A stretch of DNA of 4,200 nucleotides from a virus (lineage: Duplodnaviria > Heunggongvirae > Uroviricota > Caudoviricetes), in IMG/VR virus record IMGVR_UViG_2541047928_000001, positions 1 through 4,200 of that record; one strand, given 5' to 3'. Shown one piece after another: positions 1,798-4,188 of the stretch. The stretch's first letter is position 1. Every line of letters starts with the position of its first letter. The position numbers and the translations under genes were made by a program. The notes beneath the pieces were generated by a model, which ran no database searches, was not told where the DNA came from, and saw only the letters and a program-made list of their open reading frames with translations.

Positions 1798-2094
1798 TCA
1801 GTCATTACTGATAGCGCCATAGCGTGAGCGGTAATTACGCAGGCGCGGGTCGATATATTCAGGGAATTTGTCTATTGTCGCTTTTCGCAACGGTCTCATT
1901 GCTGTTTCGTTTGTTCGGTCCTTCTCCTGTTTTAGCGCGAGTTGTATATCGCGTCGGTACATCCGTTCTGCTTTTGTTTCTGGTGTCAGAGCAAGAAACG
2001 CGTCGAAATTGTTTTTGATATTCTCCAGCACCTCCGCCTTGGAGCTACCGGAGCAGTTGCGCGGGTCATCCGCACCATACAGAGGCGCTGGCAT
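1798..2094 (-). CDS. Hypothetical protein (98 aa)
   Basis: Track ORF. ATG at 2094-2092 with a weak SD (AAGG, 8-nt spacer), 23 nt downstream of the preceding stop. Same strand and tight spacing as the rest of the operon. No recognisable family. Confidence 0.55.
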
Positions 2095-2117: not shown

Positions 2118-2705
2118 TCAGAAAGCAGGGTAATCGTTCTGGCTGTAACCATAATCATCTGCATGATTCTGGCTTACGTTTTTAGAGCGATTGTCTTTAT
2201 CTTTGAGGCTGGCAACCATGTCGGCGATAGTTTCTGGTTGCTTGCCTTCTGCCTTTTCTTTAAGGGTTTGACCTGTTTGTGCAATAAACGGGATGCGTAT
2301 TTCCATCTGGTAGCTGTCTGCGCCAGTCTTTTTGTTTGTGGTTAATACTTTCTGGAGCACTAACCCGATTTTCTTTCCATGAAATTCAGGTGCAACAAAT
2401 TTACTGGCGGAAACCATATGCTGCGTTAATTGTCCAATCCCGGCACACCCCATCATGGCGTGAACGACATTTGCGCCAAATTTGTTTTCCGTTCCGTCAT
2501 TTTTCTGAACACAAACGCTAAGATACTGGATTTTACGTCCGTCGTCGGATTCTCCAGAAAACTCAATAAATTTGGCTCCTTTTTCTGATTTCTTTAGTTC
2601 TGCTTCAGTAATGGTAATGATATGGGCGCCAGTTTCGTTAATAAAACCACCTTGCCCTGCGGTCAGTGCTGCTTCTTCGTTATAAGTAAAAATCACGTTG
2701 CTCAT
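2118..2705 (-). CDS. Putative ssDNA-binding partner of the adjacent ATPase (195 aa); possibly T7 gp2.5-like rather than a canonical SSB
   Basis: Track ORF. Its ATG overlaps the ATPase stop (ATGA), indicating translational coupling. The C-terminus ...ADDYGYSQNDYPAF is an acidic/aromatic tail ending in Phe, reminiscent of SSB and gp2.5 C-terminal tips. The N-terminus MSNVIFT loosely resembles T7 gp2.5 (MAKKIFT). There is no canonical SSB OB-fold signature. The functional call is an inference. Confidence 0.55.
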   Translation of the reverse strand: MSNVIFTYNEEAALTAGQGGFINETGAHIITITEAELKKSEKGAKFIEFSGESDDGRKIQYLSVCVQKNDGTENKFGANVVHAMMGCAGIGQLTQHMVSASKFVAPEFHGKKIGLVLQKVLTTNKKTGADSYQMEIRIPFIAQTGQTLKEKAEGKQPETIADMVASLKDKDNRSKNVSQNHADDYGYSQNDYPAF

Positions 2706-3382
2706 GCGGCGTTTTCCTTAATTTGATGAACATTATTGATGCCGTAGTAATCACAAACAGTGGCATCGACGAAAGAGAGATCGTTATCAATCTCATTGGA
2801 ATCAAACATTCCTATTGGGGATTTAACAGTGTCTGCACCGTTGTTTTTCGTGGTGAAAAAGAACTGGTCATCGCGGGTAAGGGTGCGAAGAACTATAGTA
2901 AACATGCCTTCGACAGTGATTTTCTCGTCCAGCATTTTGCCGATAGTCTTCATTTTCACACGCCCCATAGGGGTTTCTTCGGTGTGTGCGAGAAAATAGA
3001 CTCTCAGGTCATCAGGTGCATCCTGTGCAGCCTTAATCACCTCCCATGCGTGGCGGCCTATCTCAGTGAATTTATCAAACGATTTTTCTTCTGAGCGGCG
3101 CATAAACTCATTGCTCATCACATACTGGAAGTCATCAACAATAACGATTCTTTTCCCGTATTCGTGAGCACGCTTAATTACGGCAACTATTACGTCCCAT
3201 TTGTCAGTGGTAACTACGGTTCCTTTTTTTGCTCTGGCATCCCATGCCAGCCAGTCTTTTGATTTAAATGGAAGCGGCTTGCCTATTGGTTTTATAAGTA
3301 TTGCTTCCTCTGGATTGATATTTCTCATGCTGGTTGATTTTCCGGTGCCAGATTCACCGAGTATTAATGTCGCAGTTCCCAT
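2702..3382 (-). CDS. P-loop ATPase, probably Sak4-like (AAA_24 / RecA-like core) phage recombination protein (226 aa)
   Basis: Track ORF. Walker A GESGTGKST at residues 9-17 and a Walker B-like hhhhDD motif (RIVIVDD). Size and N-terminal P-loop fit the small RecA-like Sak4 family. It sits where lambdoid phages carry their recombination module, directly after kil. SD GAGG with a 6-nt spacer. Confidence 0.7.
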   Translation of the reverse strand: MGTATLILGESGTGKSTSMRNINPEEAILIKPIGKPLPFKSKDWLAWDARAKKGTVVTTDKWDVIVAVIKRAHEYGKRIVIVDDFQYVMSNEFMRRSEEKSFDKFTEIGRHAWEVIKAAQDAPDDLRVYFLAHTEETPMGRVKMKTIGKMLDEKITVEGMFTIVLRTLTRDDQFFFTTKNNGADTVKSPIGMFDSNEIDNDLSFVDATVCDYYGINNVHQIKENAA

Positions 3383-3390
3383 AATTTGCC

Positions 3391-3579
3391 TCAGAATGGT
3401 AATTCGGATGGGGAGGAAAGAAACTCACGCTCATTCATGCGCTCTCTTTGTGCCTGCCATAAGCAAAGTTGTTTCTTTGATTTATCTCCCGCTTTACGCC
3501 AGTAACGAGCCTCAGCAATGTGATATTCTCTTTTTAATCGACTTAACTCTGGAGTTTTCGCCAGTTCTACCGGAATCAT
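3391..3579 (-). CDS. Hypothetical small basic protein (62 aa)
   Basis: Track ORF 3391..3591 trimmed to the ATG at 3579-3577, which has SD GGAGGT (5-nt spacer) and overlaps the kil stop (ATGA). Lys/Arg-rich. No recognisable family. Confidence 0.5.
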   Translation of the reverse strand: MIPVELAKTPELSRLKREYHIAEARYWRKAGDKSKKQLCLWQAQRERMNEREFLSSPSELPF

Positions 3580-3689
3580 TTTGACCTCCATTTTCTGTAG
3601 GCTTCGACGGCCTCACGAAACATCTTTTCATCGCCAATAAAAGTGGCGATAGTGAATTTAGTCTGGATAGCCATAAGTGTTTGATCCAT
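3576..3689 (-). CDS. kil: Kil-like host cell-division inhibitor (37 aa as called)
   Basis: Internal ATG at 3689-3687 of track ORF 3576..3815, with SD AGGAG (8-nt spacer). The product MDQTLMAIQTKFTIATFIGDEKMFREAVEAYRKWRSK matches my recollection of the lambda Kil N-terminus. It starts 32 nt inside the cIII 3' end, the same overlap I recall for lambda. The upstream part of the track ORF is an artefact of the overlapping cIII frame. Confidence 0.7.
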   Translation of the reverse strand: MDQTLMAIQTKFTIATFIGDEKMFREAVEAYRKWRSK

Positions 3690-3822
3690 TTTTTGGGACT
3701 CCTGGCTGATTAAGTATGTCGATAAGGCGTTTCCATCCGTCACGTAATTTACGGGTGATTCGTTCAAGTAAAGATTCGGAAGGGCAGCCAGCAACAGGCC
3801 ACCCTGCAATGGCATATTGCAT
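3658..3822 (-). CDS. cIII: CIII, FtsH/HflB protease inhibitor that stabilises CII (54 aa)
   Basis: Not in the ORF track (54 aa). Hand translation from ATG 3822-3820 to TAA 3660-3658 gives MQYAIAGWPVAGCPSESLLERITRKLRDGWKRLIDILNQPGVPKNGSNTYGYPD, which matches lambda CIII as I recall it. SD AAGGAG at 3834-3829 with a 6-nt spacer. Confidence 0.85.
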   Translation of the reverse strand: MQYAIAGWPVAGCPSESLLERITRKLRDGWKRLIDILNQPGVPKNGSNTYGYPD

Positions 3823-3840
3823 GGTGTGCTCCTTATTTAT

Positions 3841-3871
3841 ACATAACGAAAAACGCCTCGAGTGAAGCGTT
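3841..3871 (-). terminator. Candidate intrinsic terminator or regulatory hairpin between the 97-aa ORF and cIII
   Basis: Minus-strand RNA: AACGCUUC, loop ACUC, GAGGCGUU (8 bp including one G-U pair), followed by UUUCGUU. It lies just upstream of the cIII SD. Likely read through under antitermination if this is a pL-type operon. Confidence 0.35.
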
Positions 3872-3894
3872 ATTGGTATGCGGTAACGCCGCGC

Positions 3895-4188
3895 TCAGGC
3901 GGCTTTGATAGTCATATCATCTGAATCAAATATTCCTGATGTATCGATATCGGTAATTCTTATTCCTTCGCTACCATCCATTGGAGGCCATCCTTCCTGA
4001 CCATTTCCATCATTCCAGTCGAACTCACACACAACACCATATGCATTTAAGTCGCTTGAAATTGCTATAAGCAGAGCATGTTGCGCCAGCATGATTAATA
4101 CAGCATTTAATACAGAGCCGTGTTTATTGAGTCGGTATTCAGAGTCTGACCAGAAATTATTAATCTGGTGAAGTTTTTCCTCTGTCAT
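3895..4188 (-). CDS. Hypothetical acidic protein (97 aa)
   Basis: Track ORF. Its ATG at 4188-4186 overlaps the TAA of an upstream gene that ends at 4188-4190 (TAATG). The composition is strongly acidic (about 16 D/E against 5 K/R), with a D-rich C-terminal region. No recognisable family. Confidence 0.6.
   Translation of the reverse strand: MTEEKLHQINNFWSDSEYRLNKHGSVLNAVLIMLAQHALLIAISSDLNAYGVVCEFDWNDGNGQEGWPPMDGSEGIRITDIDTSGIFDSDDMTIKAA

Follow-up and report, generated by a model that had tools for sequence, protein, structure and literature searches.

An HkaK-type single-stranded DNA-binding protein encoded beside Sak4 in the early-left operon of an HK620-type phage

An early-left operon of the HK620 type

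The window (the whole stretch of viral DNA analysed here, 4,200 nucleotides in length) corresponds to the early-left (pL) operon of a lambdoid phage of the HK620 type. Its genes run along the minus strand in the order DUF2528, cIII, kil, hkaM-like, sak4, ssb, abc2, DUF2737, Ead/Ea22 and DUF551, which matches the HK620 order kil, hkaM, hkaL, hkaK and hkaJ (abc2). The features that concern us are, in the direction of reading:

3895-4188, minus strand: gene for a DUF2528 protein of 97 amino acids (phrog_646), 5′ of a terminator-like hairpin
3658-3822, minus strand: cIII, 54 amino acids, its start covered by a Lambda_thermo element
3576-3815, minus strand: kil open reading frame, 79 amino acids; its match to the Pfam Kil domain is confined to residues 44-74
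3391-3591, minus strand: small hkaM-like gene, 66 amino acids, 5′ of sak4 (phrog_1723, E = 2e-33; position of hkaM in HK620)
2702-3382, minus strand: sak4, an allele of HK620 hkaL (224 of 226 residues identical to HkaL; phrog_2872; Pfam AAA_24)
2715-2719, minus strand: AAGGA, a Shine–Dalgarno-like motif 9 nt 5′ of the ssb ATG and within the 3′ end of sak4 (read from the sequence)
2702-2705, minus strand: ATGA overlap between the stop of sak4 and the start of ssb (from coordinates and sequence)
2118-2705, minus strand: ssb, an allele of HK620 hkaK ('SSB-2'), 195 amino acids plus stop (open reading frame, HkaK alignment, phrog_743)
1798-2094, minus strand: abc2 (anti-RecBCD), 3′ of ssb in the same recombination module (Pfam Anti-RecBCD_p2, E = 1.5e-35; phrog_656; position of hkaJ)

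The ssb gene is read from 2705 to 2118, with its ATG at 2705-2703 and its stop at 2120-2118, and its product begins MSNVIFT and ends NHADDYGYSQNDYPAF. The 195-residue frame and both termini are as an earlier note on this DNA had described them; the minus strand had been left unsaid. The ATGA overlap probably couples the translation of ssb to that of sak4. The sak4 gene matches phrog_2872, 'Sak4-like ssDNA annealing protein' (E = 1e-107), and its sequence points to a core-only RecA-like ATPase and single-stranded DNA (ssDNA) annealase, which would be the partner recruited by the tail of the SSB. The hkaM gene of HK620, the counterpart of the small gene 5′ of sak4, has been called an orphan (PMC5928155).

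Farther upstream, the Rfam model Lambda_thermo (the lambda cIII thermoregulator RNA) matches over its full length at 3777-3835 on the minus strand (88.5 bits), across the cIII start, and a terminator-like hairpin lies just 5′ of it (3871-3852, minus strand). The 5′ part of the kil open reading frame overlaps cIII in a different frame, and the kil gene annotated in RefSeq for Escherichia coli AR_0017 is 114 nt long. The true start of kil is therefore probably an internal ATG. The DUF2528 protein may resemble lambda Ea10, sometimes labelled 'ssb' in old annotations.

The 588-bp ssb gene has copies of 100% identical DNA in prophages of E. coli AR_0017 and CE10, and some version of it is carried by about 5.6% of complete E. 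coli genomes (303 of 5,426). RefSeq labels the exact window protein 'hypothetical protein' (WP_000073093.1; positions 3741-4328 of the AR_0017 locus, L007), the Sak4 of AR_0017 'ATP-binding protein' and other ssb alleles 'DUF669 domain-containing protein'. In our database comparison no record spans at least 80% of the whole window, as is expected of the mosaic early regions of lambdoid phages.

An allele of HkaK, the SSB of phage HK620

The protein encoded by the window ssb gene (the window SSB) is identical to HkaK of phage HK620 (SSB_HK620, Q9AZ30) at 191 of 195 positions (98%) in a pairwise alignment without gaps. The four substitutions, read from the window to HK620, are K39Q, E153V, D162N and A194P. 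The window SSB is assigned to phrog_743, 'single strand DNA binding protein' (E = 7e-66), and a tblastn search of phage genomes matched 142 records, among them HK620, in which the match lies over hkaK beside hkaL. The two loci are alike in the neighbours hkaM, sak4, ssb and abc2 and in the ATGA coupling to sak4, whereas their early-left flanking genes are mosaic. The tails of the two proteins are the same except for one residue, the tip being NDYPPF in HK620 and NDYPAF in the window.

The HkaK and Sak4 pair of HK620 was studied by Hutinet et al. in 2018 (Front Microbiol 9:743, PMC5928155). HkaK was found to correspond to Pfam DUF669 and to be distantly homologous to the SSBs of N4, Lc-Nu and PhiAT3, and HHpred gave no direct match to E. 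coli SSB (PMC5928155). The purified protein has an apparent mass of approximately 95 kDa by size-exclusion chromatography, that of an apparent tetramer, and it shifts ssDNA in gels in two steps; both properties are shared with E. coli SSB, but the affinity for ssDNA is about four-fold lower (PMC5928155). HkaK lacks an annealing activity of its own, inhibits spontaneous annealing and blocks annealing mediated by RecA, but in vitro it boosts the ATP-dependent annealing activity of Sak4, and in vivo it boosts recombineering (PMC5928155). Deletion of NDYPPF lowered recombineering 10-fold, turned the stimulation of annealing into inhibition and abolished the supershift of Sak4 on SSB-coated ssDNA, with ssDNA binding and oligomeric state unaltered (PMC5928155). 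Because no complex of Sak4 and SSB was detected in solution without ssDNA (PMC5928155), a direct contact between tail and Sak4 is still a hypothesis, even in HK620. HkaK is classed as type 'SSB-2' in a survey of the recombination modules of lambdoid phages published in 2025 (PMC12315714).

These experiments bear directly on the earlier note, which had proposed an ssDNA-binding or annealing protein with a tail that recruits the neighbouring ATPase. Binding of ssDNA is borne out by the gel shifts of the 98%-identical HkaK, and recruitment by the loss of the Sak4 supershift on deletion of its six residues, the neighbouring ATPase of the window being 99% identical to Sak4/HkaL (PMC5928155). The alternative of an annealing protein is not supported, as the orthologue does not anneal and inhibits spontaneous annealing (PMC5928155). 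The truncation of the last six residues that the note had put forward as a check is the one published for the orthologue, with the supershift abolished (PMC5928155). The functional idea is thus right but was published in 2018; with the HkaK experiments, both the hypothesis and the truncation were already in the literature.

Sequence family and predicted fold

No Pfam model, PF00436 (SSB) included, matched the window SSB at E ≤ 0.1 or even at E ≤ 10, none of the NCBIfam models matched, and a sequence search of the Protein Data Bank (PDB) gave zero matches with either the single sequence or the family profile; the observation that the usual SSB motifs are missing is therefore right at the level of sequence. 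PF05037 (DUF669) likewise fell short of its gathering score, with nothing even at E ≤ 10 (HMMER). Among 35 close relatives, 13 touch this model weakly (best E 0.0067), and many homologues carry the NCBI name 'DUF669 domain-containing protein' despite the missing match of the window SSB.

The SSB of phage N4 (gp45), with the DUF669 proteins, is comparable in several respects: these are phage proteins with an acidic tail, and in N4 (gp44/gp45), as in the window, the gene adjoins a Sak4-like gene. N4 gp45 is longer, at 265 amino acids. Our family profile was built from 60 sequences with identities as low as 26%; when we aligned it to the single gp45 sequence with hhalign, 145 columns were aligned at an insignificant probability of 1.7%. 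In published HHsearch comparisons, HkaK passes the 95% probability cut-off with N4 gp45 (PMC5928155 Methods) and the N4 SSB reaches DUF669 at 98% probability (PMC4889955).

We modelled the window SSB with AlphaFold2 on a 35-sequence alignment (pLDDT 80.8, pTM 0.78). From the N-terminus, the model shows a strand (residues 3-7), a helix (10-15), a disordered loop (18-25), three strands (27-39, 45-53, 58-67), a second helix (75-88) and four strands (92-99, 102-104, 112-123, 130-140), followed by two short helices and a disordered tail. The core maps to the window as follows:

2286-2630, minus strand: predicted OB-fold core, residues 26-140 (three strands, the helix at 75-88 and further strands)

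Foldseek comparison of the model with the whole PDB ranked PrgE first (E approximately 1e-3, probability 1.0), followed by Bacillus subtilis SsbA, mycobacterial and Pseudomonas SSBs, and PriB. Against viral models (BFVD), the best matches (E 4e-12 to 2e-7, TM 0.56-0.65) were DUF669 proteins and annotated phage SSBs, the latter from Vibrio phage phi50-12 and Roseobacter phage RD-1410W1-01. PrgE, from the Enterococcus plasmid pCF10 (PDB 8S4S and 8S4T), has 13-14% identity to the window SSB, and alignment of the family profile to the single PrgE sequence gave an insignificant hhalign probability of 1%. The links to N4 gp45 and PrgE therefore rest on fold comparison and on the published profile–profile searches. 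PrgE is a protein of 144 amino acids that binds both double-stranded and single-stranded DNA and forms filaments through its N-terminal tail, and the part of its description consulted here mentions no partner-recruiting C-terminal tip. Residues 24-52 of the window SSB, ETGAHIITITEAELKKSEKGAKFIEFSG (2550-2636, minus strand), resemble residues 17-45 of PrgE (L113, 19064-19495), ELGTHAAVIEKVQKKRSQKGNDMFLLSL. This likeness between ETGAHIITITEAELKKSEKGAKFIEFSG and ELGTHAAVIEKVQKKRSQKGNDMFLLSL falls in the first two strands of the barrel and is insignificant by the same hhalign comparison, yet it is in line with the first rank of PrgE among the structural matches.

Classical SSBs such as that of E. 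coli (PF00436) share with the window SSB the predicted OB fold and a disordered, acidic, Phe-ended C-terminal tail, which recruits partners in the classical SSBs and probably does so here; the window tail is also aromatic, and its tip is YPAF where the classical tip is IPF. Identity in structural alignments is approximately 10%, and hhalign of the family profile with E. coli SSB gave a probability of 82% over only 20 columns, in the hairpin of strands 4 and 5. Beyond the classical fold, the model of the window protein has an additional N-terminal strand and helix and two helices after the barrel. According to a prediction by Kazlauskas et al. (2016, PMC4889955), the SSBs of the DUF669 and N4-like groups have acidic tails and OB folds that are highly diverged, and HkaK has been stated not to be homologous to bacterial SSB (PMC12315714). 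The model settles the predicted fold as a diverged OB fold that is nearest to PrgE and the classical SSBs and away from T7 gp2.5. The earlier note had implied a protein outside the OB class, and the fold predicted here is an OB fold rather than an unrelated one. The window SSB fits best in the HkaK/'SSB-2' clade, with a diverged OB fold and a position at the fringe of the DUF669/N4-like assemblage of phage SSBs.

An acidic, Phe-ended tail with a variant tip

The C-terminal end of the protein comprises two features:

2121-2177, minus strand: disordered acidic/aromatic C-terminal tail, residues 177-195, ending NHADDYGYSQNDYPAF (pLDDT <50; family-wide composition, terminal Phe)
2121-2138, minus strand: last six residues, NDYPAF, the counterpart of NDYPPF (HkaK alignment; carries P194A)

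Across 116 full-length close homologues (53-97% identity), the last 15 positions hold a mean of 3.1 acidic and 3.4 aromatic residues and 0.03 basic ones, and 106 of the 116 end in Phe (64 in Pro-Phe). An exhaustive profile search gave 660 cluster representatives at E ≤ 1e-3; among the 135 distant representatives of roughly full length, the C-terminal residue is Phe in 94, Trp in 8 and Tyr in 6. Many distant representatives end in DDDIPF, and the E. coli SSB tip is DDDIPF (quoted in PMC5928155). Overall, 200 of 251 family members have a terminal Phe. The acidic/aromatic, Phe-ended tail is more than chance, because it is conserved across the family, and the SSB-like tail that had been recognized from this one sequence is confirmed both by this conservation and by the low pLDDT (<50) of residues 177-195, which a flexible tail would be expected to show.

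The window tip NDYPAF shares five of six residues with NDYPPF of HK620, including the terminal Phe. The same Ala (P194A, giving PAF) is found in 7 of 72 HK620-type viral loci, in addition to 2 of 72 with PSF, and in the two E. coli prophages (AR_0017 and CE10) that have the identical gene. The penultimate Pro is not strictly constrained, as it is kept in 64 of the 116 close homologues and the terminal Phe in 106. P194A is most likely a neutral polymorphism, and the NDYPAF allele would act like the tested NDYPPF allele. Against this equivalence stand the four residues that differ between the two proteins, one of them the penultimate residue of the functional tip.

Directly before the disordered tail lies the motif LKDKDNR (residues 167-173; 2187-2207, minus strand), with a short modelled strand at 170-172. 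In the alignment consensus, LKDKD(N/E)R is kept family-wide, including in members with 26-50% identity. Oligomerization and docking of the tail are possible roles for it.

Genomic partners of related SSBs

We compared 80 viral and 25 bacterial loci, each classified by the gene upstream of the SSB. A scan of viral contigs gave mostly near-identical loci, and the diversity came from genome contigs. Sak4 is upstream in all 72 HK620-type loci (≥95% identity), with the −4 ATGA overlap in 69 of them, and most of the distant relatives in Enterobacterales (55-79% identity) keep Sak4 with the same overlap. The tails of these distant relatives vary widely; all are acidic/aromatic and most end in Phe. 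Sak4 is also paired with an SSB of this type in phage N4 (gp44/gp45) and in Aeromonas phage 4_D05. Retained in HK620-type loci, distant Enterobacterales and both of these phages, the Sak4–SSB pairing is old and widespread.

Three loci (L042, at 3376-3996, L043 and L068) have an open reading frame for a Cys-rich protein of 206 amino acids between a diverged sak4 allele of 218 amino acids and an HK620-type ssb, and this insertion breaks the usual ATGA coupling. The 206-residue protein has no match in Pfam; as a guess, it could be an inserted mobile element, for example a gene resembling those of homing endonucleases.

A clade of 84-87%-identical SSBs has a different neighbour. In nine of nine loci (L005 and L080-L087), the gene upstream is an exonuclease and Sak4 is absent; phage ArgO145 (L005, 1565-4088), for example, has the order gam, recT, exo, ssb. 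Gam–RecT–Exo modules of this type are typical of Stx phages. Since such close relatives reside in modules without Sak4, the SSB is not strictly specific to Sak4. The Exo-linked proteins have the tail ...GYWQYG(G/S)D(N/S)F, unlike the HK620-type tail, on a core that is approximately 87% identical.

Multiple copies of the SSB occur in two bacterial assemblies. A metagenome-assembled genome of Candidatus Phlomobacter fragariae (L103-L109 and L112) has at least eight copies on seven scaffolds, mostly without a recognizable Sak4 upstream, and Xenorhabdus sp. TCT-1 (L097-L099) has three copies with identical tails. This multiplicity suggests proliferation of prophages or mobile elements. A use of tail type as a specific code for the partner is unsupported, as tails vary widely among Sak4-linked relatives too.

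Proposed mechanism and alternatives

We consider it very probable that the window gene encodes the SSB of a Sak4–SSB–Abc2 module in an HK620-type E. coli prophage, with an OB core that coats ssDNA and a tail that recruits Sak4. The diverged OB-fold core (residues ~26-140) would coat single-stranded DNA, and the DNA-bound protein would expose its disordered acidic/aromatic, Phe-ended tail. Once released, the tail may contact and recruit the co-translated Sak4, a core-only RecA-like ATPase, and the resulting tail- and ATP-dependent loading of Sak4 on SSB-coated ssDNA would stimulate annealing, if the orthologue data extend to the window allele. Abc2, encoded just downstream, may modify RecBCD and thereby supply the resected ends.

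A broader role is compatible with that in Sak4 recruitment. The tail could imitate the host SSB tip in a general way, the protein being mainly a phage SSB for replication and recombination that serves the host SSB interactome or whichever recombinase its module contains (RecA or RecT/Exo), without being specific to Sak4. The many family members that end in DDDIPF, exactly as E. coli SSB does, are consistent with such mimicry, as are the stimulation of RecA-mediated strand exchange by SSB_HK620 in vitro and the 84-87%-identical clade that always follows Exo in Gam–RecT–Exo modules without Sak4. SSB-2 is also combined with another type of annealase (PMC12315714), and DUF669 proteins have been proposed to be replication SSBs (Kazlauskas et al. 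2016, PMC4889955). However, ssb is almost always translationally coupled to sak4 in HK620-type and distant Enterobacterales loci, the loading and stimulation of Sak4 specifically require the tail of the HK620 SSB itself (PMC5928155), and NDYPAF, the tip in the window, differs strongly from DDDIPF. On balance we regard general mimicry as rather unlikely.

It is also conceivable, although we think it improbable, that the tail is a fast-evolving module for partner matching, in which P194A and P194S tune the recombinase or host protein recruited. That the Exo-linked clade has a tail of its own is suggestive of partner matching, but it is no proof, because the tail evolves rapidly regardless of the partner. 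If true, the swapping of tails would redirect a single SSB scaffold between modules of the Sak4 type and those of the RecT/Exo type.

Alternatively, replacement of the penultimate Pro could have weakened the function of this allele of the HK620 SSB or shifted its choice of partner. In E. coli SSB, the equivalent of P194 is presumably P176, the site of the interaction-defective ssb-113 mutation. P194 itself is among the six residues shown to be essential in HkaK (PMC5928155). Nevertheless, the recurrence of PAF in seven of the HK620-type viral loci and of PSF in two, the identical gene in two E. coli genomes and the retention of the penultimate Pro in only 64 of 116 close homologues, as against the terminal Phe in 106, make a loss or shift of function quite improbable.

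T7 gp2.5 forms dimers and anneals DNA by itself. It is a phage SSB with an acidic, Phe-ended C-terminal tail for protein–protein contacts and superficially similar first residues, and the earlier note had read the window protein as possibly a divergent relative of it, which would make it a dimeric SSB that itself anneals DNA; with the acidic tail, the terminal Phe and the M..IFT start present in both proteins, that reading is nonetheless largely refuted, and we give it almost no credence. The N-terminal echo holds as far as the letters go (MSNVIFTY compared with MAKKIFTS) but does not reflect homology: the family profile has no sequence or profile similarity to gp2.5 (hhalign probability 3.3%). 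Descent from a gp2.5-like protein finds no support in the structural comparison either, gp2.5 being absent from the listed Foldseek matches of the model. The HK620 orthologue is, moreover, an apparent tetramer without annealing activity (PMC5928155).

Significance

The Sak4-recruiting SSB that we favour adds little new biology, since experiments published in 2018 had already characterized the 98%-identical orthologue, together with its partner and the function of its last six residues. The RefSeq annotation of WP_000073093.1 and of the alleles named after DUF669 could be upgraded accordingly. The predicted fold bears on a relationship to SSBs that has been left unsettled, diverged OB folds being predicted in one study (PMC4889955) and homology denied in another (PMC12315714). 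The pair of Sak4 and SSB may also be of some use in the design of recombineering tools.
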